From NCBI GenBank assembly GCA_963790205.1, contig CAWBNQ010000003.1:448001-512000 (forward strand): 64,000 bases of DNA. Reading direction: 5' to 3'. The DNA is from Nitrospirota bacterium. GTDB taxonomy: Bacteria > Nitrospirota > UBA9217. The position numbers were made by a program, and so were the translations under genes. Shown one piece after another: positions 23,972 to 41,741 of this stretch. Positions within the stretch are counted from its first letter, which is position 1. Every line of letters begins with the position of its first letter. The notes under the pieces were generated by a model that was not told where the DNA came from, searched no databases, and worked only from the letters and a program-made list of their open reading frames with translations.

Positions 23972-24601
23972 TTAGAGCTCTATTTCATTAAAGGTTGAGT
24001 AGACGTACAGGGTGAAGTCGTTTTCTATCCGGTCGTGCCTGAGGGCAACGGAAGGGGAGAGGTTCTCGATCGCGAATTTGACCATGTCCTCCGGCGAGGT
24101 GAAATGGAGCTCGGGGTCCTTGACGGGGGTGTGGGACGACAGCGCGTTCAGGGCGAGGCCCTTGTTGCAGTGCTTGAACAGGGCGACGAGTGCGTTCTTC
24201 AAGTCGTCATCGACACCGGGGACCTGCAGGTTGAACACGCCGCAAATGAAGATGTAGTCGTAGAACCCTTCGAGCTCATCGTCGTCCGCGCACATGACCT
24301 TGAAGGTACAGTCGGGATACTTGCTCTTTGCCAGGTTGATGAAGTTTTCATTGATGTCTACGCCGGTATACCGCACGGTGATGTCCCGCCGCTTTAAAAA
24401 ACGATAAAAGTCTCCGGTCCCGCAGCCGTAGTCGAGGACCGTGCTGTTGTTCAGGTCTTCCGCCGGCGCTATGGAGGCGAGGGTATGGTAGCGCTTGAGC
24501 TGGCCTTTTGGCGTCCAGCGGAGCGCCTCGGGCCGGTCGCCGAATTTTTTCAGATGAAAGTTATAAAAGGACAGGAGTTGGTCTTTCGAAAAGGGGTCCA
24601 T
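23972..24601 (-). CDS. Class I SAM-dependent methyltransferase
   Basis: VLDYGCGTG, YTGVDIN; GGAGG RBS. Confidence 0.85.
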   Translation of the reverse strand: MDPFSKDQLLSFYNFHLKKFGDRPEALRWTPKGQLKRYHTLASIAPAEDLNNSTVLDYGCGTGDFYRFLKRRDITVRYTGVDINENFINLAKSKYPDCTFKVMCADDDELEGFYDYIFICGVFNLQVPGVDDDLKNALVALFKHCNKGLALNALSSHTPVKDPELHFTSPEDMVKFAIENLSPSVALRHDRIENDFTLYVYSTFNEIEL

Positions 24602-24757
24602 GGACATCCTCCGCAATAACATACACATACACGCGTGAATAAAATATTGTACCGGAATGAACGCATGAAAGCAAGGGCACGCTTTCAGACGGGAAGTATA
24701 GGACATGCATAACTTTGCTTCTATACAGAACTAATTTTGTCCTGTTAAATGTTTTTC

Positions 24758-26302: not shown

Positions 26303-27502
26303 ATGTCTTCTACCGATACAGAACAAAAAGAGATCGTTCAGAAGGAAATAACCTTAAACATGGGTCCTCAGCACCCGGCCACCCATGGCGTGCTGCGCCT
26401 GGTGCTCGACCTGCAGGGCGAGACCGTGGTGGGCTGCGACCCGCGTCCCGGCTACCTGCACCGCGGGATCGAGAAATGGATGGAGAGCAGGACCTACCAT
26501 CAGATCATCCCCATGACCGATCGGCTGGAATACATCACCTGCATGAATAACAATCTGGGCTACGTGGTGGCTGTCGAGAAGCTTGCGGGCATCGAGGTCC
26601 CGGAGCGGGCGCAGTTCATCAGGACGCTGATGGCCGAGCTTACGCGGCTTTCCGGGCACCTTGTGTGGCTTGGCACCCATGCCCTTGACATCGGCGCCAT
26701 GACGGTCTGCATGTACACGCTGCGGGAACGGGAACTTATCCTCGACCTTACGGAGATGGTGACGGGCGCACGCCAGACCGTGAGTTATGTCCGTATCGGC
26801 GGTTTGCGGAACGATATATCGCGCGACTTCATCGACAAGTGCCGGGAATTTACCGAGATATTCCCGAAGCGGCTCGAACAGTACGACACGCTGATCCGCG
26901 AGAACCGCATCTGGCTCCAGCGCACCGTTGGCATCGGCGTGTTCTCGGCGGCGGATGCGGTCAACTACGGCCTGACCGGCGGTACGCTCCGCGGCTCGGG
27001 AGTAAACTACGATCTGCGCAAGGTCGAGCCGTATGCGGCCTATGATAAAGTGGAGTTCGACGTGCCGCTGGGCAAGAACGGCGATGTCTACGACCGGTAT
27101 ATCGTGCGTATCAACGAGATGCGCCAGAGCAACCGGATCATCAAGCAGTGCCTCGACATGATGCAGCCCGGACCGATCACGACCGACGATGCGCGCTACG
27201 CCATTCCTGAGAAAATGCAGGTGATGCAGAGCATGCAATCGCTGGCCCACCAGTTCGTGCTCATGAGCAAGTGGGTCCCCATGCCCAAGGGTGAGGTATA
27301 TGTGGCGACCGAGGCGCCGAAGGGCGAACTTGGTTTCTACATCGTAAGCGACGGGAGCGGCAGGCCGTACCGCATCAAGATCCGAGCCCCATCGTACGTG
27401 CACATAAGCGCCCTTCCGAAAATGGTTATCGGGCATATGATGGCGGATGTTATCGCCTGCATCGGGACCATCGACATTGTGTTGGGCGAGTGCGACCGGT
27501 AA
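26303..27502 (+). CDS. nuoD: Complex I subunit D
   Basis: NMGPQHPATHGVLR, GYLHRGIEK, DRLEY, EAPKGELG, DIVLGECDR; no NiFe CxxC motifs. Confidence 0.95.
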   Translation: MSSTDTEQKEIVQKEITLNMGPQHPATHGVLRLVLDLQGETVVGCDPRPGYLHRGIEKWMESRTYHQIIPMTDRLEYITCMNNNLGYVVAVEKLAGIEVPERAQFIRTLMAELTRLSGHLVWLGTHALDIGAMTVCMYTLRERELILDLTEMVTGARQTVSYVRIGGLRNDISRDFIDKCREFTEIFPKRLEQYDTLIRENRIWLQRTVGIGVFSAADAVNYGLTGGTLRGSGVNYDLRKVEPYAAYDKVEFDVPLGKNGDVYDRYIVRINEMRQSNRIIKQCLDMMQPGPITTDDARYAIPEKMQVMQSMQSLAHQFVLMSKWVPMPKGEVYVATEAPKGELGFYIVSDGSGRPYRIKIRAPSYVHISALPKMVIGHMMADVIACIGTIDIVLGECDR

Positions 27503-27526: not shown

Positions 27527-27883
27527 ATGAAACTGAGAGAAATCATTAACCTGCTTCATGCCGAGGTCCTTGTCGGGAACGGTCTCATTGACGAGATCGA
27601 GGTGGAACGGTGCTTCAGCGCCGATCTCATGAGCGATGTGCTCGCCCGGTCCCATGCGAACGGAATTCTGATCACGGGGATCTCGAACCCCCAGGCAGTG
27701 CGAACGGCTGACATCGCCGACATCAGAGCGGTCTGTCTCGTTCGCGGGAAAAAACCGGAGGAGGGCGCGGTTTCCCTGGCACGGCAAAAGGATATCCCCC
27801 TTTTTGTAACGAAGCTGACTATGTTCGAGGCCTGCGGCATTTTATACATGAACGGGCTTAAGGGGGTAGCCGAGCGGCAATAA
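27527..27883 (+). CDS. DRTGG-domain protein 1
   Basis: ADLMSDVL, LITG..NPQAVRTA, VRGKKP, MFEACGILY. Confidence 0.8.
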   Translation: MKLREIINLLHAEVLVGNGLIDEIEVERCFSADLMSDVLARSHANGILITGISNPQAVRTADIADIRAVCLVRGKKPEEGAVSLARQKDIPLFVTKLTMFEACGILYMNGLKGVAERQ

Positions 27884-27886
27884 GAG

Positions 27887-28840
27887 ATGGCACTGGAAGG
27901 CAAAGAGCAGGAGACGCTGGACCGGGTGACCAAGACCCAGGAGATGGTCTATGAGATCACGGTCGGCGAGGTCATGGCTGCCAAGGTGTTTACCGTAAGG
28001 CCGGACCAGACCATGTCGGAGCTTAGCCTTCTCATGCGGGACAACCGCATTTCCGGCACCCCGGTGGTGGAGAACGGAAAGCTCGTAGGCATGGTCAGCA
28101 TCGCGGACCTGATCAACGCCCTCAGCAGTAATGATATCAACGCTCCCATCCGGGAGAAGATGAAAACAAAGGTTGAGTGCCTGTACACCGACGAACTGCT
28201 CGTCCACTGTATCGCCAAATTTTCCAAATACGGGTATAAGCGGTACCCCGTGTTGAACCGCAATGAAGAGCTGGTGGGCATCATCACCAAGGGAAACATC
28301 GTCGAGGGCTTGCTCAAGAAGCTCGAGATCGAATACGAACAGACCGAGTCGAAAGCCGACGCGACGCGTCATCGGCCCACGATGCGGAAGTTTTTCGAGG
28401 ATGTATCAGCCGACGAGATCAGTTTCACGTTTAAGTTCAATGTCGCAGGCCAGACCCTGAAAGAAGCGGGCAAGGCGGCGAGCGAGCTTAAGAACGCGCT
28501 CAAGAAACTGGGTGTCTGTCCTCCGCTCCTTAGAAGGATCGGGGTGGCCACCTACGAAGCGGAGATCAACCTCGCTTCGTACACGAAAGGTGGAGAGATC
28601 CGGGCCCAGGTGGAGAAGTGGGGGATCACGGTTGAGGCGGTCGACAGCGGCCCCGGGATCCCCGATGTCGAGCGCGCGATGCAGCCGGGATATTCCACGG
28701 CGCCCGACTGGGTGCGGGAATTGGGGTTCGGCGCCGGCATGGGGCTGGTGAACATGAAAAAATGCGCCGATGAGATGAATCTGCAATCAGCGGTGCCCGA
28801 TGGGACGCATTTGACCATGCAGTTCTACTACACGAGTTGA
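27887..28840 (+). CDS. CBS-pair + RsbT-like (anti-sigma type) Ser/Thr kinase
   Basis: Two CBS repeats, then YEAEIN, DSGPGIPD..AMQPGYST..GFGAGMGL. Confidence 0.85.
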   Translation: MALEGKEQETLDRVTKTQEMVYEITVGEVMAAKVFTVRPDQTMSELSLLMRDNRISGTPVVENGKLVGMVSIADLINALSSNDINAPIREKMKTKVECLYTDELLVHCIAKFSKYGYKRYPVLNRNEELVGIITKGNIVEGLLKKLEIEYEQTESKADATRHRPTMRKFFEDVSADEISFTFKFNVAGQTLKEAGKAASELKNALKKLGVCPPLLRRIGVATYEAEINLASYTKGGEIRAQVEKWGITVEAVDSGPGIPDVERAMQPGYSTAPDWVRELGFGAGMGLVNMKKCADEMNLQSAVPDGTHLTMQFYYTS

Positions 28841-28850
28841 CCGGGGGCCA

Positions 28851-29192
28851 ATGAACCTGAATGATCTTGTGAAGGAATTCGGCCTGGATGTGAAGGTGGG
28901 CTCCGGTCATCTCGACCGCGAGGTGACGGGGGGATACGTGAGCGACCTCCTGTCCGATGTCCTGGCCCACGGCGAGGAAGGGAACGTCTGGGTCACGCTC
29001 CATATCCATCAGAACATCGTGGCCGTGGCATCGCACAAGGACCTGGCGGGCGTCATCCTGGTCCAGGGAAGGCAGCCGGAAAAGGACACGATTGCCCAGG
29101 CCGAGAAAGAGAACATCCCGATCATGGTGACCAGCCTTCCGGCCTTTGAAGTGGTTGGCAGATTGTACAAGGCGGGTATCCGTGGCGCTTAG
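28851..29192 (+). CDS. DRTGG-domain protein 2
   Basis: GGYVSDLLSDVL, WVTLHIHQNIVAVA. Confidence 0.8.
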   Translation: MNLNDLVKEFGLDVKVGSGHLDREVTGGYVSDLLSDVLAHGEEGNVWVTLHIHQNIVAVASHKDLAGVILVQGRQPEKDTIAQAEKENIPIMVTSLPAFEVVGRLYKAGIRGA

Positions 29193-29928
29193 GCGCATAA
29201 AGGCCGATTTGCACGTGCATACCTGTCTGTCACCCTGCGCCGGCCTCGATATGTCGCCCCGTGAAGTCGTGAATGCGGCCGTCCAAAAGGGCCTCGATCT
29301 GATCGGCGTGTGCGACCATAACTCGGCGGAAAACGTTCTGGCTGTCAAGAAGGCGGGCGCGCGAAACGGGCTGATGGTGCTCGGCGGGATAGAAGTCGCC
29401 TCTGCGGAAGAAGCGCACCTCCTGGCGTTCTTTGACGATGACGACGACCTCCTGCATTTCCAGGAGTTTATTTACCGGCATTTGGCGGGCAGGAATGATG
29501 AGCATAGCTTCGGGTTGCAGGTGATCGCGGACGATGAGGACGGGGTCACGGGATTTTGCGATCGGCTTCTGATCGGGGCGACATCGCTTCCGGCCGAAAA
29601 AATCGTCGAAGCTGCCCGTGCGGCAAAGGGTAGAAGTCTCGTGATCGCGGCGCATGTGGACCGGGAGGCGTTCAGCATCATTGGGCAGCTTGGGTTCATT
29701 CCTTCCGGTCTCGCCCTGGACGGAGTAGAGGTATCTCAGCACACGACCTGTGCTGACGCAAGGGAACGGTTTCCCGATTGTAAGAACTATCCGGTCATCA
29801 CCGGTTCGGATGCTCACTGTCCGGAGGACATTGGTAACCGTTTTATCTGGTTAACGATAGAAGACGGGACGGCAGCGGAGATACAAAAGGCCCTGACCGG
29901 CAGCGACGGTCGGAAGGCGGACTGCTGA
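29182..29928 (+). CDS. PHP-domain metallophosphoesterase
   Basis: DLHVHTCLSPC, DHNS, GIEV, AAHVDR, SDAH; GTG start assumed. Confidence 0.85.
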   Translation: MALRRIKADLHVHTCLSPCAGLDMSPREVVNAAVQKGLDLIGVCDHNSAENVLAVKKAGARNGLMVLGGIEVASAEEAHLLAFFDDDDDLLHFQEFIYRHLAGRNDEHSFGLQVIADDEDGVTGFCDRLLIGATSLPAEKIVEAARAAKGRSLVIAAHVDREAFSIIGQLGFIPSGLALDGVEVSQHTTCADARERFPDCKNYPVITGSDAHCPEDIGNRFIWLTIEDGTAAEIQKALTGSDGRKADC

Positions 29929-29932
29929 GGCT

Positions 29933-30469
29933 GTGGAAGATATTTCGCTGCATATCCTCGATATCGCCGAAAACTCGATACGAGCGCAGGCCACGAGGAT
30001 AGAGATAATCCTGACCAGGGATGTAAAGAACGATCTTTTCCGCGTGGAAGTCATAGATGACGGCAGGGGAATGGATCCTGAAACCCTCGCCATGGTACGT
30101 GACCCTTTCTTTACGACCAAGGGGAAGAAGACCGGTTTGGGCATCCCACTTCTGGCACAGGTCGCTGAACAGGCGGGCGGGAGCATACGTATAGATTCCG
30201 CTCCGGGCAAGGGCACACGGGTGTCGGTTACCTTCCAATTGAACCACGTGGACCGGCCCGCGATCGGCAGCATGGCCGACACGATGCTCACGCTGATAGC
30301 AGGCCACCCGGACCTCGATTATGTGTACGAAGAGCGGGAGGATGGAAGGGTCTTCCGGTTCGATACCCGGGAAATAAGGAACGATCTTGAAGACGTGCCG
30401 ATCAACACCCCTGAAGCGCTCACCGCAATTCGGGGCATGCTCAAAGAACAGATAAAATTTGAAATGTGA
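29933..30469 (+). CDS. Stand-alone HATPase_c (GHKL) protein
   Basis: DIAENS, DDGRGM, DPFFTTK, GLGIP, GKGT; no HisKA domain. Confidence 0.85.
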   Translation: MEDISLHILDIAENSIRAQATRIEIILTRDVKNDLFRVEVIDDGRGMDPETLAMVRDPFFTTKGKKTGLGIPLLAQVAEQAGGSIRIDSAPGKGTRVSVTFQLNHVDRPAIGSMADTMLTLIAGHPDLDYVYEEREDGRVFRFDTREIRNDLEDVPINTPEALTAIRGMLKEQIKFEM

Positions 30470-30494: not shown

Positions 30495-31004
30495 ATGAGT
30501 AACGAAGCGGTTGCACAGCATACAGACACAAGCAACGAGTTCATAACGCCTGAGATGTACCGGAAAATCGACGACATCGTTGCGAAGTACAAGGACAAGC
30601 CCGGTTCGCTTATCCCGGTGCTCCAGCAGGCGCAGGACGTATGCGGCTATCTGCCGCATGCCGTTCAGCGGTATGTCGCCAAGGGGCTCATGATGTCGCC
30701 GAGCGTGGTTTTCGGCGTCGCCACCTTCTACTCGTTCTTCACGCTCGTGCCGCGCGGCAAGCACGTCATCCGCGTCTGTCTCGGCACGGCCTGCTACGTG
30801 AAGCGGAGCGAGGAGATTCTCGATAAGATCAAGGACGAATTGGAGCTCGAAGTCGGCGAGGTCACCCGGGACAAGAAGTACTCCCTCGAGGCCGTGCGGT
30901 GCCTCGGCGCCTGCGGTCTTGCGCCGGTCGTGGTGGTGGGACAGGACACCTATGGCGACGTGGCTGCGACGAAGGTGATGGACATCATCAAAAAATACGA
31001 GTAA
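30495..31004 (+). CDS. nuoE: NuoE/HydC/HndA-type [2Fe-2S] subunit
   Basis: LIPVLQQAQ..GYLP, VATFYSFF, CLGTAC, CLGAC. Confidence 0.9.
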   Translation: MSNEAVAQHTDTSNEFITPEMYRKIDDIVAKYKDKPGSLIPVLQQAQDVCGYLPHAVQRYVAKGLMMSPSVVFGVATFYSFFTLVPRGKHVIRVCLGTACYVKRSEEILDKIKDELELEVGEVTRDKKYSLEAVRCLGACGLAPVVVVGQDTYGDVAATKVMDIIKKYE

Positions 31005-31100: not shown

Positions 31101-31478
31101 ATGGCAAAGCTGACGATCGCCGATTTAAAAAAGATTAAGGAAGACTATCACCAAGGGCTTCGCGAAGGCGGGTTCCGGGTCAAGATTACCATTCATATGG
31201 GGACGTGCGGGATCGCAGCAGGCGCCCGGCCCATCATGAACACGGTCATGGAAGAGCTGGCCAAGTCGAAGCTCAAGGACGTTGCGATCACCACCTCCGG
31301 CTGCGCGGGGCTCTGCAGCAAAGAGCCGATGGCCACCATCGAACTCGCAGGCGGGCCGCCGGTGAAATATATTTCGTTGACAGCGGAGAAGATGCAAAAG
31401 ATCTTTGCCGAGCATGTGGTGGCCGGCAACCCGGTCAAGGAGTACGCCCTGGTTGTTGGGCATGAGACGACCTACTGA
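31101..31478 (+). CDS. HndB/HydD-like thioredoxin-fold [2Fe-2S] ferredoxin
   Basis: MGTCGIAAGA, SGCAGLCSKEP, IFAEHVVAGNPVKEY. Confidence 0.85.
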   Translation: MAKLTIADLKKIKEDYHQGLREGGFRVKITIHMGTCGIAAGARPIMNTVMEELAKSKLKDVAITTSGCAGLCSKEPMATIELAGGPPVKYISLTAEKMQKIFAEHVVAGNPVKEYALVVGHETTY

Positions 31479-31540: not shown

Positions 31541-33334
31541 GTGGAAACTACGAATTACCGTTCAAACATAATGATCTGCGCGGGCACGGGCTGCGTGGCA
31601 AACGGGTCCCTCAAGGTCAAGGACGCGCTCGAGACCGAGCTCATCAAGCGCAACCTCCAGAACGAGATCAAGATCGTACTGACCGGGTGCAACGGGTTCT
31701 GCGCCAAGGGCCCGGTCATGGTGGTCTATCCCGAGGACATCTTCTATCAGCAGGTGAAGCCAGAAGACGTGCCTCATCTCGTTGAAGAGCACTTCATCAA
31801 GGGGCGGCCGGTGCAGAAATTCCTCTACACGCCGCCGGCGCAGAAAGACGCCATCCCGGTGATGAACGAGATCCCGTTCTTCAAGCACCAGGTGCTCCGG
31901 GCCCTCAGGAACCGTAGCCTCATCGACGCGGAGAAGATCGAGGAGTATATCGCCCGCGACGGCTATATGGCCGCGGCCAAGGCGCTCACCGAGATGACGC
32001 CCGAGCAGGTTGTAGCTGAAGTAAAAAAATCGGGCCTCCGCGGCAGGGGCGGCGCCGGGTTCCTGACCGGACTCAAGTGGGAACTTTGCGCGCGCGTTCA
32101 GGGCGACGTCAAGTATATCCTGTGCAACGGCGACGAAGGCGACCCCGGGGCGTTCATGGACCGCAGCGTCATGGAAGCGGACCCCCATTCTGTGCTCGAG
32201 GGCATGATCATTGCTGCCAAGGGGATTAACGCCCATTATGGCTATATATATGTAAGGGCCGAGTACCCCCTGGCCGTGCATCGTCTTCAACTCGCGATCG
32301 AACAGGCCAAGGACCGGGGCCTTCTGGGCAAGGACATCCTGGGCACTGGTTTCGACCTTGATATCGAAATCTATCAGGGGGCAGGCGCCTTTGTGTGCGG
32401 TGAAGAAACGGCGCTCATGGCGTCGATCGAGGGCAAGCGCGGCATGCCGCGGCCCAAGCCGCCGTTTCCTGCGGTCAAGGGCCTTTGGATGAGGCCGTCG
32501 GTGCTGAACAACGTCGAGACCTTCGCGAACGTGCCACCGATCATCCTGAACGGTGCAGACTGGTTCTCGAGCCTCGGTACGGAGAAGAGCAAGGGGACGA
32601 AGGTGTTCGCGCTGTCCGGCGCTCTCAACAACATCGGCCTCGTCGAAGTGCCCATGGGCATCCCGCTCAAGACCATTATCTTCGACATCGGCGGCGGCAT
32701 CAAGGGGGGCAGAAAGTTCAAGGCCGTGCAGATGGGCGGTCCTTCCGGCGGCTGCATCCCCAATTCGCTCATCGACACGCCCGTAGATTTCGAGAATATC
32801 AACAAGACCGGCGCCATCATGGGGTCCGGCGGCATGGTGGTGATGGACGAGACCACCTGCATGCCGGCCATGGCCAAGTTCTTCCTCGAGTTCACCGAGG
32901 ACGAGTCCTGCGGAAAGTGCGTGCCTTGCCGGATAGGGAACAAGACGCTCCTCTCGATCCTCACCAGGATCACGAACGGCGAAGGCCGCGAGGGAGACAT
33001 CGAGTTGCTCCTCGCACTTTCCCAGCAGATCAAGGACACTTCGCTCTGCGGACTGGGCCAGACTTCGCCCAACCCGGTACTCACGACGATCAAGTATTTC
33101 AGGGACGAATATGAGGCGCACATCAAGGAGCATCGCTGCCCAGCCCGGGTCTGCACGCCGCTCGTCAAGTTCGTGGTGGACGAGAGTAAATGCAAGAAGT
33201 GCGGCCTGTGCTTCAAAAACTGTCCCGTGGGCGCCATTACGTGGGAAAAAGGCAAGGTCGCTTACATCGACCCGGAGAAATGCACGAAGTGCAAGACCTG
33301 CATCAAGAACTGCAGGTTCTGGGCGATCGATTAG
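31541..33334 (+). CDS. nuoF: Long-form NuoF / HydB-type FMN-NADH subunit
   Basis: N-terminal CAGTGC..GCNGFC domain, GLRGRGGAGF, DEGDPGAFMDR, CGEETAL, ESCGKCVPCR, C-terminal 2[4Fe-4S]. Confidence 0.92.
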   Translation: METTNYRSNIMICAGTGCVANGSLKVKDALETELIKRNLQNEIKIVLTGCNGFCAKGPVMVVYPEDIFYQQVKPEDVPHLVEEHFIKGRPVQKFLYTPPAQKDAIPVMNEIPFFKHQVLRALRNRSLIDAEKIEEYIARDGYMAAAKALTEMTPEQVVAEVKKSGLRGRGGAGFLTGLKWELCARVQGDVKYILCNGDEGDPGAFMDRSVMEADPHSVLEGMIIAAKGINAHYGYIYVRAEYPLAVHRLQLAIEQAKDRGLLGKDILGTGFDLDIEIYQGAGAFVCGEETALMASIEGKRGMPRPKPPFPAVKGLWMRPSVLNNVETFANVPPIILNGADWFSSLGTEKSKGTKVFALSGALNNIGLVEVPMGIPLKTIIFDIGGGIKGGRKFKAVQMGGPSGGCIPNSLIDTPVDFENINKTGAIMGSGGMVVMDETTCMPAMAKFFLEFTEDESCGKCVPCRIGNKTLLSILTRITNGEGREGDIELLLALSQQIKDTSLCGLGQTSPNPVLTTIKYFRDEYEAHIKEHRCPARVCTPLVKFVVDESKCKKCGLCFKNCPVGAITWEKGKVAYIDPEKCTKCKTCIKNCRFWAID

Positions 33335-33440: not shown

Positions 33441-35612
33441 ATGCCAAACATTACAGTAACGGTTGACGGGAAAAAAGTTGAAGTGGCCATGGGCGCGACT
33501 ATCCTCGATGCGACCAAGGCCGCGGGCGCGCGGGTGCCGACCTTGTGTCATGACAACAAGCTCCATCCCTTCGGCGCGTGCCGCGTCTGTCTCGTTGAAG
33601 TGGAGGGGACGCCCCGCAAGTTCACGCCGTCGTGTACGACGCCGGCGACGGACAATATGGTGGTGAAGACCATGACGCCGTCCTTGATCGAAGCGCGGAG
33701 GATGGTCCTCGAACTCCTTCTGATCAAACACCCGCTCGATTGCCCGGTCTGCGATAAGGCGGGCGCCTGCCAGCTCCAGGACCTCGTTCACGAGTACGGG
33801 CTCGGCCAGAGTCGTTTCGACGCTGAGAAAGGCTATCTTCCCCCGGATCTGGAGAGCGCGGTCATCGAACGCAACATCAGCCGCTGCATCCTCTGCGGCA
33901 AGTGCGTCCGGATCTGCGACGAACAGAACGCGGTGGGCGAGTGGGCCTTTACCCGGCGGGGCACGCGGGCGCGCATCAGCACCGACTTCGACCGGCCGCT
34001 GGACTGCGAGTTCTGCGGCGAGTGCGTCGAGATCTGTCCGGTGGGAGCGCTCACGACACGGCAGTTCAAGTACAAGGCGCGGTCATGGAACCTCGAAGAA
34101 ACCGCGTCGGTCTGCAACTATTGCGGCTGCGGCTGCGCCATAGCGTACGAGACCCGCGACGGCCGGATCATGCGGGTGAGCCCGGCAAAGGAGAACTACC
34201 TGTGCACCAAGGGCAGGTTCGGCTGGGACGCGGTGCATCACGGCGAGCGGCTCACCACCCCGAAGATGCGTGTCGGCAATGAGCTCGTGGACTGCACCTG
34301 GGACGAGGCGCTTTCCATGGTCGCGACCAATCTCAAGGTGATCAAGAACAAGCGCGGGGCGGAGAGCATCGGCGGCCTCGGCTCGGTCCGCACGACGAAC
34401 GAGGACGGCTATCTGTTCCAGAAGTTCATGCGCACCGTGGTCGAGACGAACAACGTTGACATGCTCGCCCGGCTTAAAGTCCCGAAGGGGATCGATGCGG
34501 CCTTCTTCTCCGGCGAGCTCGGTAAAATGAAAGACCATGAGGTCATCCTCGTGCTCGATAAGAACGTGGGTGAGATCAACCCGCTCACCGGCATCGAAAT
34601 AGTGCGCGCCGTTAACAAGAAGGAACGGAAACTGATCCTGGTGAGCGATGACTACACTAAGTTCAACAAACTCGCTTCGGTCGTGCTGGCGGAAAAAACC
34701 GAAGCGGCGCTCGCCGGGCTCCTCAAGGGCCTGTCCTCGGCCTCGGGCAGCGCAGACGTAAAAAAGGCGTCGGACCTCCTGAAAGCCGCCAAAAGCGTTG
34801 CGATCATCGTGCCCGCCCATATTTCCGATACCGAATACAGGCAGATTATGGAGCTTGCGGCACTGCTCAAGAGCGTGACCTTTTATCCGCTTGTCAGGCG
34901 GAGCAACTTCCAGGGTTCGCTCGACATGGGCGTCGTGCCTGAATATTATCCCGGCTACCGGAAGGTGGCAGCGGACACGACCGAGCTTTCCGCCGCATGG
35001 AACGCTATCCTGCCCGAAACCCCGGGCAAGAACGCCGTCGAAATGATCAACGGGATCAAGTCCGGCGTCATGGCCGCCCTCTATATCATGGGTGACGACC
35101 CGGTGGGGAGTGATCCGAACCTCAAGCAAACGCTCGGGAAGCTCGAGTTCCTGGTGGTACAGGACGTCTTTATGACCGAGACGGCCAAGCTTGCCCATGT
35201 GGTGCTTCCCGCTGCGGCCAGTGCTGAGAAATCCGGCACGTTTACCAACCTCGAGCGCAGGCTTCAGCAGCTCAACCGGGCCGAGGAGCCGGTCGGCGAG
35301 TCGAGACCCGACTGGGAGATCATCACGGAGCTCGCGAAAAAAATGGGCGGGTCCATGCCCTACGCGTCCGAGCGGGACATCATGAAGGAGATCAGGTCCG
35401 TCGTGCCTCTCTACGCGGACCTTGCGATCGGCGCATGCTGGGCGGCGGACAAATCGCCGCTGGTCAATACGAATGCCGACCTTTCGCTGGCATCGGACTC
35501 GATCATGAAGCAGGAAGTCATTACCGCCGAGCGGTTGCTGTTCTCGTCAGGCATGACGATAACCCGCTCGAAGGAAATTGGGACTATAAAGCACATTAAG
35601 ATCGAAGTGTAG
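33441..35612 (+). CDS. nuoG: NuoG-like multi-Fe-S subunit with molybdopterin-oxidoreductase-fold body
   Basis: PTLC..GACRVC..SC, HPLDCPVCDKAGAC, CILCGKCVRIC, CEFCGECVEICP, CNYCGCGC..LC, EKSGTFTNLERR. Confidence 0.88.
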   Translation: MPNITVTVDGKKVEVAMGATILDATKAAGARVPTLCHDNKLHPFGACRVCLVEVEGTPRKFTPSCTTPATDNMVVKTMTPSLIEARRMVLELLLIKHPLDCPVCDKAGACQLQDLVHEYGLGQSRFDAEKGYLPPDLESAVIERNISRCILCGKCVRICDEQNAVGEWAFTRRGTRARISTDFDRPLDCEFCGECVEICPVGALTTRQFKYKARSWNLEETASVCNYCGCGCAIAYETRDGRIMRVSPAKENYLCTKGRFGWDAVHHGERLTTPKMRVGNELVDCTWDEALSMVATNLKVIKNKRGAESIGGLGSVRTTNEDGYLFQKFMRTVVETNNVDMLARLKVPKGIDAAFFSGELGKMKDHEVILVLDKNVGEINPLTGIEIVRAVNKKERKLILVSDDYTKFNKLASVVLAEKTEAALAGLLKGLSSASGSADVKKASDLLKAAKSVAIIVPAHISDTEYRQIMELAALLKSVTFYPLVRRSNFQGSLDMGVVPEYYPGYRKVAADTTELSAAWNAILPETPGKNAVEMINGIKSGVMAALYIMGDDPVGSDPNLKQTLGKLEFLVVQDVFMTETAKLAHVVLPAAASAEKSGTFTNLERRLQQLNRAEEPVGESRPDWEIITELAKKMGGSMPYASERDIMKEIRSVVPLYADLAIGACWAADKSPLVNTNADLSLASDSIMKQEVITAERLLFSSGMTITRSKEIGTIKHIKIEV

Positions 35613-40213: not shown

Positions 40214-41741
40214 ATGCTCGATTATATGCATATCCACATGCTGAGCTTTTTGATCCTGCTGCCGCTGGCCGGCGCGTTCATCCTGCTGTTCATCCGCGAT
40301 GCCGATGCCGTGCGCAGGATCGCCATGGTCTTTTCGCTGGCGGAGCTGGCGCTCTGCGTACCGCTCGTCGCGAATTTCGACACAACAACCGCCGCCATGC
40401 AGTTTGCAGAGAACCATGAGTGGATCAAGGCATGGGACATCAATTACAAACTCGGCGTCGACGGTATCAGTGTCCTGTTTGTGGCGCTGACCGCGCTGCT
40501 CACGGTTATTTCGATCATGGTGTCCTGGAAGGCTATCCAGGACCGGGTGCGGGAGTTCATGATCGCCATGCTGGTCCTCGAGGCCGCAATGATCGGCGTG
40601 TTCACGGCCCTCGACCTTTTCCTCTTCTACATCTTCTGGGAGGCCATGCTGATCCCGATGTATCTCCTGATCGGCGTCTGGGGCGGCCCCAACCGGCTTT
40701 ACGCCGCGATCAAGTTCTTTTTGTACACCCTCGTCGGCAGCGTGCTCATGCTGATCGCGATCATCGCCGTTTATCTGGCCGCTGGCCACACCTTCGACGT
40801 GCTCGCGATCATGAATTATAAATTCAGTCTACACATTCCAGATGTGGGCCTTCGCCGCGTTCTTCGCGGCCTTCGCGGTCAAGGTGCCGATGTTTCCGGT
40901 CCATACCTGGCTGCCCGACGCGCACGTGGAGGCGCCGACCGCCGGCAGTATCATCCTTGCCGGGATCCTCATCAAGATGGGCGCCTACGGGTTCCTGCGG
41001 TTCTCGCTGCCGTTCTTCCCCGACGCGGCGCTTGCCTGGACGCCTGCCATCATGATCCTGTCCGTGATCGCCATCATCTACGGCGCGTACATGGCCTTTG
41101 CCCAGACGGACTTCAAAAAGCTGATCGCCTATTCGAGCGTGAGCCACATGGGTTTCGTCACTCTCGGCATCTTCGCGTTGAACCTCCAGGGCATGGAGGG
41201 CGGCATTCTCCAGATGCTGAACCACGGCGTCTCGACCGGCGCTCTCTTCCTTGCCGTGGGCGTGATCTACGAACGGACGCACACGCGCCTGATCGCCGAC
41301 TACGGCGGTATCGCGGCCAGGGTGCCGGTGTATGCCACGTTCCTGCTGATCATCACGCTCTCGTCCATCGGTCTTCCCGGCACGAACGGGTTCATCGGCG
41401 AGTTCACGATACTTTTGGGCGCGTTCCTGCATCAGAAAATTTATGCCGTGATCGCCTCCCTCGGGATCATCCTGGGCGCCGGCTACATGCTCTGGCTTTA
41501 CCAACGGGTCGCCTTCGGCAAGATCACGAACCCGCATAACGAACACCTGGCGGACATGAATATGCGAGAGGTGGTCGCGGCGCTCCCGCTCGTGGCGCTG
41601 GTGTTCATCATCGGCCTCTACCCGAACGCGGTCTTCGGCATCATGCACGTTTCCGTGGCAAACCTCATCCAGCACGTGAATGCCAAGATGCAGACCGCGC
41701 CGGAAATGACGCAGATGCTCAGCACGGTCATAGGAAAATAA
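40214..41741 (+). CDS. nuoM: Complex I subunit M; +1 frameshift between about 40815 and 40845
   Basis: FYIFWEAMLIPM in the first frame; KVPMFPVHTWLPDAHVEAPTAGS, YSSVSHMG in the next frame. Confidence 0.9.

Follow-up and report, generated by a model that had tools for sequence, protein, structure and literature searches.

The 64,000-nucleotide stretch of a Nitrospirota genome analyzed here (the window; GenBank assembly GCA_963790205.1, contig CAWBNQ010000003.1, positions 448,001 to 512,000 of the forward strand) contains a nuoA-N operon for respiratory complex I in which five additional genes stand between nuoD and nuoE. They encode two small DRTGG proteins, a CBS pair fused to a GHKL kinase domain, a PHP phosphoesterase and a stand-alone GHKL protein, and are referred to together as the cassette. 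In window coordinates, nuoD and the cassette genes are:

26303..27502, + strand: nuoD, the last of nuoABCD before the cassette (Pfam and TIGR01962 matches above cut-off)
27527..27883, + strand: DRTGG protein 1 (DRTGG1), 118 aa (Pfam DRTGG)
27887..28840, + strand: CBS pair fused to a SpoIIAB/RsbT-like GHKL kinase domain, 317 aa (Pfam CBS pair and HATPase_c_2)
28851..29192, + strand: DRTGG protein 2 (DRTGG2), 113 aa (Pfam DRTGG at 25.0 bits, just below the 25.2 cut-off)
29182..29928, + strand: PHP phosphoesterase (Pfam PHP), with GTG at 29182 the likelier start; the longest frame is 29146-29928
29933..30469, + strand: stand-alone GHKL protein, 178 aa (Pfam HATPase_c)

A preliminary description of this DNA had reported five genes packed with gaps of 25 nt or less, and the frames, strand and gaps bear this out: all five open reading frames are intact, lie on the + strand between the end of nuoD (27502) and the start of nuoE (30495), and are separated, from nuoD to nuoE, by 24, 3 and 10 nt, an overlap, 4 and 25 nt. 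The median gaps in 36 loci of the same family are 16, 4, 13, -20, 4 and 28 nt. The motif that had been noticed in both DRTGG proteins is present as DLMSDVL in one and DLLSDVL in the other. The genes are not degenerate: across the 36 family loci, median nonsynonymous difference (pN) is 0.09-0.18 versus 0.51-0.68 for synonymous difference (pS), and by this measure all five are under purifying selection. The source genome has one copy of the cassette, and its kinase is single-copy in all 85 kinase-positive Nitrospirota genomes. Recent foreign insertion was considered and rejected, as the G+C content of 54-61% resembles that of the neighbors and the cassette is found family-wide.

As to the claim that no terminator is evident, terminator-like matches between 22 and 36 kb of the window occur at chance level (11 versus 12.4); one of them, on the + strand, lies inside the PHP gene. 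Promoter-like matches in the same scan are also at chance level (6 versus 5.6); one weak match falls at the kinase/DRTGG2 junction, and the sole strong + strand site (11/12) precedes nuoA. Three soil metatranscriptomes contained no more than 0.11 of the locus words. In two of the three runs, contigs of relatives, for the most part below 95% similarity, reach every one of the 30 bins; with no DNA control, and as contigs do not show a transcript, they say nothing about co-transcription.

The cassette is followed by the genes of the complex I input module:

30495..31004, + strand: NuoE/BfuC, HydC-type (Pfam and family-profile matches)
31101..31478, + strand: extra thioredoxin-like protein, HydD/BfuD-like, 125 aa with three Cys, between nuoE and nuoF; a candidate target of the cassette
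31541..33334, + strand: long NuoF/BfuB, HydB type, 597 aa, carrying AFM, F and GGPSG and, at its C terminus, two [4Fe-4S] motifs
33441..35612, + strand: NuoG, 723 aa, without an H-cluster and without Cys at the formate-dehydrogenase Mo-ligand position

The thioredoxin-like gene and the long HydB/BfuB type of NuoF go beyond the preliminary description. The bifurcating signature of BfuB comprises A/E232, M234, F367 and GGPSG (PMC7311640), and the window NuoF carries it as AFM, F and GGPSG. It scores 863 bits to the bifurcating chain 7T2R_B versus 383 bits to the 445-aa NuoF chain 7AWT_F, and matches both 7T2R_B and 7Q4V_B over their full length. Pfam recognizes the FMN-binding, NADH 4Fe-4S, N-terminal 2Fe-2S and C-terminal 2x[4Fe-4S] domains; the SLBB domain of BfuB (IPR019554) is unlisted by Pfam at an E-value of 0.01, and the same region aligns to 7T2R_B and holds GGPSG. 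The three Cys of the HydD-like protein are present in 29 of 30 aligned rows. Formate dehydrogenase was considered as the downstream enzyme and rejected because NuoG lacks the Mo-ligand Cys.

With nuoE, the long nuoF and a NuoG-type BfuA enclosed by the other genes of a nuoA-N operon, the head agrees with the predicted Nuo-Bfu in the sequence features compared, the SLBB domain apart, and the input module is predicted to use both NADH and ferredoxin. Nuo-Bfu has been predicted in Nitrospirae (clade 39) and proposed to deliver electrons from NADH and ferredoxin to menaquinone (Schut et al. 2022, PMC9304861). That operon and the one in the window share BfuC, BfuB and a NuoG-type BfuA in mid-operon; the window locus differs by the added HydD-like gene and cassette, and Nuo-Bfu is itself a predicted, uncharacterised enzyme. 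The text of that paper has no match to kinase, phosphatase or BfuD and its supplement text none to kinase, DRTGG or PHP, with figures outside the search.

The cassette kinase was found in 40 of 53 genomes of the family and in 85 of 301 genomes of the phylum, and cassette loci were compared from 44 family genomes. In 38 of these, nuoD is directly followed by DRTGG1, and the cassette is conserved among relatives that share this nuo type. Of the 38, one (G035) is frameshifted across the whole locus. Canonical nuoE and nuoF stand between nuoD and the cassette in two further genomes, both heads being kept, contig ends cut the locus in two, and a cassette without CBS surrounds an [FeFe] hydrogenase in two. 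The kinase-negative genomes give the complementary picture: nine of the 13 have an orthologous nuoD (83-88%), all eight cassette-less orthologous operons with readable downstream sequence encode a short NADH-only NuoF (TFK or TIK, Y, without GGPSG), and a stand-alone HydD match is found in none of the 13. Seven of the eight readable operons have a cyclic-nucleotide-binding (cNMP-binding) gene before nuoE. Genes of this kind, encoding 150-175 aa, occupy the cassette slot immediately after nuoD in L148-L153 and L155, as well as in L089, L094 and L129; the product is possibly a different regulator of complex I.

Eight genes in the window thus stand where the cassette-less relatives have NADH-only nuoEF, and nuoG is common to both versions of the operon. 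The window NuoG is 67-69% identical to NuoG of two cassette-less relatives; its identity to the NuoG-like proteins encoded at other cassette-linked loci in Nitrospirota is 35-39%. Read most simply, the eight genes would have replaced nuoEF as one unit. Within one family, a single complex I operon thereby exists in NADH-only or bifurcating form, along with intermediates and two-head genomes.

The cassette accompanies the HydD-containing bifurcating head and not complex I generally, because relatives with ordinary NuoEF lack it and non-respiratory Bfu enzymes have it. The earlier proposal that it controls a respiratory complex I is narrowed accordingly: the cassette tracks the Bfu head, and the head here does belong to a complex I operon. 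As relatives with NADH-only input lack the cassette, it is likely the control system of the bifurcating module.

The association extends well beyond Nitrospirota. A GTDB scan gave at least 589 relatives of the lone GHKL protein among 601 stretches, of which the best 80 were kept; gene presence was counted with profiles in the 59 of those 80 loci that have enough flank. All five genes are present in 50 of these 59 loci, from many phyla, and HydD likewise in 50 of 59. The hosts include Bacillota, Bacteroidota, Chlorobiota, Acidobacteriota, Planctomycetota, Thermodesulfobacteriota and others, and the flanked enzymes are [FeFe] and [NiFe] hydrogenases, formate dehydrogenases and GltD/Nfn-type proteins. 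The resemblance to hydrogenase-linked gene sets that had been pointed out is supported, as is the reported absence of the extra Fe-S protein. Of the best 80 loci, 13 carry the CBS fusion and 18 carry a gene resembling hydrogenase, with no locus carrying both, and we infer that the CBS pair stands in for the Fe-S/sensor hydrogenase of related cassettes. The window locus is then a hydrogenase-free, predicted CBS-gated version of a cassette found with Bfu enzymes in many phyla.

Complex I is joined by the cassette in several ways. Among other Nitrospirota families, the kinase lies within 15 kb of nuoD in 14 of 44 kinase-positive genomes, where the cassette either forms part of the operon (L215, L216) or stands head-to-head with a nuo operon that is complete or lacks EFG. 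A deltaproteobacterial class (that of G305) has nuoD followed by DRTGG2 and GHKL and then by HydD or NuoF in 15 of 17 genomes; G305 has DRTGG1, kinase and PHP after nuoN. At least four arrangements of the cassette within or next to nuo operons are thus seen. In a BfuB tree of 46 rows, all 21 nuo-linked rows and five other Nitrospirota rows form one branch (98 by the Shimodaira-Hasegawa-like approximate likelihood ratio test, SH-aLRT), the trees being quick, midpoint-rooted and with SH-aLRT support only, without bootstrap.

The kinase domain has the N-box YEAEIN, with E224 and N228, and these residues, D253, the D-G-G motif and the glycine-rich motifs are invariant in all 63 kinase rows. Its PDB sequence matches are solely SpoIIAB (anti-sigma F factors), and its TIGR01925 match is below the cut-off of that family. 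In 25 of 25 rows, the first repeat of the CBS pair carries GxxSxxD and the second repeat GxxTK. DRTGG1 has invariant D33, S36, T50 and T95 in a 66-row alignment, and DRTGG2 invariant Y29, D32, S35, W47, T49, H53 and N55; Ser36 of DRTGG1 is conserved in 66/66 rows and Ser35 of DRTGG2 in 67/67. The AlphaFold model of DRTGG1 (predicted local distance difference test, pLDDT, 94) superimposes on the DRTGG structure 2IOJ with a TM-score of 0.79, places the conserved serine at the first turn of a helix and does not have the STAS fold. An ESM Atlas search with DRTGG1 returned DRTGG clusters alone, and a PDB sequence search with DRTGG profiles just weak DRTGG/HPr-kinase matches. Natural DRTGG1-kinase fusions exist in two clusters (P0121 and P0122), one with 39 members, and DRTGG1 is likely the partner of the CBS kinase. 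In split cassettes the kinase retains DRTGG1 and the lone GHKL protein retains DRTGG2, a co-segregation which suggests two pairs, kinase:DRTGG1 and GHKL:DRTGG2.

The PHP protein keeps the HxH, DH, E, H, H and DxH metal motifs and a conserved CxxxC. The lone GHKL protein has a 75-aa C-terminal extension, whose ESM Atlas matches are unnamed and below 0.9, and in the N-box alignment its Asp10 occupies what we take to be the catalytic-Glu slot of GHKL ATPases and serine kinases. Its model aligns with MutL, GyrB and TopoVI over 170-290 columns (TM-score 0.45-0.56) with a root-mean-square deviation (RMSD) of mostly 8 Å or more, and with histidine kinases over about 100 residues; the long GHL-type match has a poor RMSD, and the protein may be either a kinase or an assembly ATPase. 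A domain search found no His-acceptor (HisKA/DHp) domain in either GHKL protein of the cassette, and a classical two-component system was rejected on this ground.

Similarity to known systems is partial in each case. Like SpoIIAB/SpoIIAA and RsbT/RsbS, the cassette combines a small GHKL serine-kinase domain bearing the catalytic Glu with small proteins that have a conserved serine at a helix start; unlike in those partner switches, the small proteins are DRTGG and not STAS, the candidate phosphatase is PHP and not PP2C, and no sigma factor is linked to the window cassette. By analogy, the cassette would work like a partner-switching kinase module, yet without STAS and PP2C it falls outside membership. 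It corresponds to the CBS version of the gene set surrounding putative sensory [FeFe]-hydrogenases of group D (M2e), such as TamHydS, as described in PMC8163306; it differs in lacking the sensor hydrogenase, in having a kinase with a fused CBS pair and in standing ahead of complex I as the enzyme. No H-domain sensor gene stands in the 10-nt gap between kinase and DRTGG2, and a search of the source genome (98% complete) gave no match to the [FeFe] H-domain (PF02906), where 2 of 14 controls gave one. The statement that no hydrogenase is present thus holds for [FeFe] H-domains genome-wide and does not extend to group-4-like membrane hydrogenase clusters, which lie on contig C8 of the source genome (L066).

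In the hydCEDBA operon of A. woodii, HydD is an extra subunit of the isolated enzyme (PMC6288185) and HydE may act in assembly or signalling (PMC3315566); the accounts of it in these two papers do not describe DRTGG, kinase or PHP genes. The likeness of the window proteins to HydE and HydD is by domain and position, taken from descriptions rather than sequences, and in that sense the lone GHKL protein is HydE-like. CBS pairs and the DRTGG fold also co-occur in CBS-pyrophosphatases (PMC7705103; PDB 3L2B, 3L31), from which the cassette differs in having CBS and DRTGG in separate proteins, no pyrophosphatase domain, and a CBS pair that is optional across cassettes. The Bfu-enzyme papers cited here describe no protein-level control and leave open the roles of HydD and HydE and the group D signalling route. 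The open full-text literature likewise yields no study of the cassette, in keeping with the earlier statement that no characterised example was known, and subscription papers or figures may mention one. The cassette is real, conserved and uncharacterised; what is new here is the comparison of canonical and bifurcating operons within one family, the pairs seen in split cassettes, the natural fusions, the NuoE with a receiver domain described below and the fold of the lone GHKL protein.

The five genes form an accessory cassette of the Bfu head, which they likely control by reversible serine phosphorylation. A more specific proposal, that adenylate-gated serine phosphorylation of the DRTGG proteins controls assembly or activity of the HydD-BfuBC head, we advance tentatively, with a probability a little short of even. 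In it, the CBS pair would bind adenine nucleotides and gate the kinase, the kinase would phosphorylate Ser36 of DRTGG1, the lone GHKL protein would act on DRTGG2 or on HydD, and PHP would strip the phosphate from DRTGG. The state of the DRTGG proteins would be relayed to HydD/BfuBC and set whether the head is assembled or active, and ferredoxin-coupled electron flow through complex I would thereby track the energy state of the cell. Ser36, Ser35, Glu224 and Asp10 are the residues to mutate, and the choice of electron input to complex I becomes a testable question.

Several observations weigh against this proposal. Phosphotransfer and partner binding are predictions from sequence and models. 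The putative substrate has a DRTGG and not a STAS fold, and the putative eraser is PHP and not PP2C, with best family matches to nucleotide or sugar-phosphate hydrolases, all below cut-off. The conserved serine also aligns in both of two Pta-like DRTGG domains and could be a helix cap, and the lone GHKL protein, judged by its model, may be no more than an ATPase. The cassette is missing from two nuo operons of Nitrospirota that encode a long NuoF (AFM, Y, GGPSG; L162, L163) and from two other Bfu loci of the source genome (L062, L063); these operons and loci lack the cassette, which is thus not required for every Bfu head. BfuB is absent from the DNA examined in 4 of 55 well-flanked cassette loci; the loci were selected through the cassette, and related genomes are not independent.

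The GHL-type match bears on an alternative that we consider unlikely, in which a MutL/Hsp90-like lone GHKL protein and the DRTGG proteins load or stabilize HydD together with the additional Fe-S clusters that BfuB carries, and phosphorylation is secondary or absent. Solely GHL-type ATPases align with the lone GHKL model over its full length, in L101 this gene stands beside HydD without the remaining cassette, and the reduced nuoD-DRTGG2-GHKL set of the G305 class and the description of A. woodii HydE as an 'assembly or signalling' candidate (PMC3315566) would fit as well. Such a role leaves the SpoIIAB-like kinase, its swappable sensor input (CBS or hydrogenase-like) and PHP unexplained, however; cassette-free Bfu heads exist, and the structural match has the poor RMSD given above.

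SpoIIAB/RsbT-type kinases usually act ultimately on sigma factors. The relay might then act on transcription of the Bfu operon by way of a sigma factor or regulator encoded elsewhere, in partner-switching style, and histidine kinases, receivers and sigma-54 activators do flank the cassette in other Nitrospirota. We regard this as slightly less likely still: the family loci have no DNA-binding or other regulator inside the cassette (no genome search for a cognate regulator was made), and the cassette moves with the enzyme genes into mid-operon positions and splits around them.

It is improbable that the system signals by small molecules without protein phosphorylation, CBS and DRTGG binding adenine or diadenosine nucleotides, the GHKL proteins being nucleotide-dependent switches and PHP hydrolyzing the signal. 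CBS and DRTGG form the nucleotide-regulated insert of CBS-pyrophosphatases, where DRTGG likely has an important part in responding to ApnA (PMC7705103), the DRTGG1 model resembles the DRTGG domain of those enzymes, and the PHP matches are small-molecule or RNA phosphoesterases. Yet most cassettes have no CBS (it occurs in 13 of the best 80) and still retain both DRTGG proteins, and the catalytic Glu of the kinase is invariant. That the cassette merely arrived with Bfu genes and has no role in complex I is very improbable and already disfavored: it is widespread beside unrelated Bfu enzymes and some complex I Bfu heads lack it, but it is under purifying selection similar in kind to that on nuoE and HydD, is single-copy in all 85 kinase-positive genomes, is retained within or next to nuo operons in the several arrangements above, and has no [FeFe] hydrogenase to serve in the source genome.

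A bolder form of the phosphorylation proposal would define a new class of serine-kinase switch, with a GHKL kinase, a DRTGG acceptor, a PHP eraser and an interchangeable CBS or hydrogenase sensor, acting directly on bifurcating enzymes via HydD; in these Nitrospirota, adenylate charge would select the NADH-only NuoEF(G) or the NADH-plus-ferredoxin head for one membrane arm. We consider this form doubtful.

In sister lineages, a receiver domain forms the N-terminal part of NuoE/BfuC (L056:3956-4813 and 21 further loci), and a HAMP histidine kinase adjoins. The full phospho-Asp motifs are present in 21 of the 22 loci, some of which may be from the same genome, and the fusion hints at protein-level control of the head. 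Variants of the cassette include a PHP-lone GHKL fusion in two Planctomycetota (L127:9281-10450, L144:6626-7786), where CBS is likewise fused to the kinase and the partner enzyme is of GltD type; a tandem duplication of DRTGG1 in several Smithella-like loci (L080, L081, L088, L098, L117, L128, L132, L134); and a second DRTGG2-GHKL copy in the G305 class (L206-L214), with either HydD or a hydrogenase-like gene next to it downstream, the latter forming a histidine kinase fusion in three loci.

Elsewhere in the source genome, contig C1 carries an orphan set of cNMP-binding gene, nuoE, short NADH-only nuoF and nuoG without membrane genes (G000:C1:35509-39529; L061:6983-11539). Its NuoG is 59% identical to that of the window, and the set could serve the same complex I as a second head. 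The other loci compared from this genome (L062, L063, L064, L065 and L066, on contigs C1, C2, C5, C9 and C8, respectively) include a formate-dehydrogenase Bfu locus beside the formyltetrahydrofolate synthetase (FTHFS) gene, whose alpha gene is split at the Mo-ligand position, possibly by selenocysteine, as well as a carbon monoxide dehydrogenase (CODH)-linked Bfu locus, a second complete nuo operon and part of a third. In the window, nuoM (40214-41741) is split by a frameshift near 40830 and is a single 512-aa frame in cassette-less relatives; the split is either an assembly error or a real lesion. A methyltransferase-like gene (23972-24706) is divergent from nuoA here and in several family loci.

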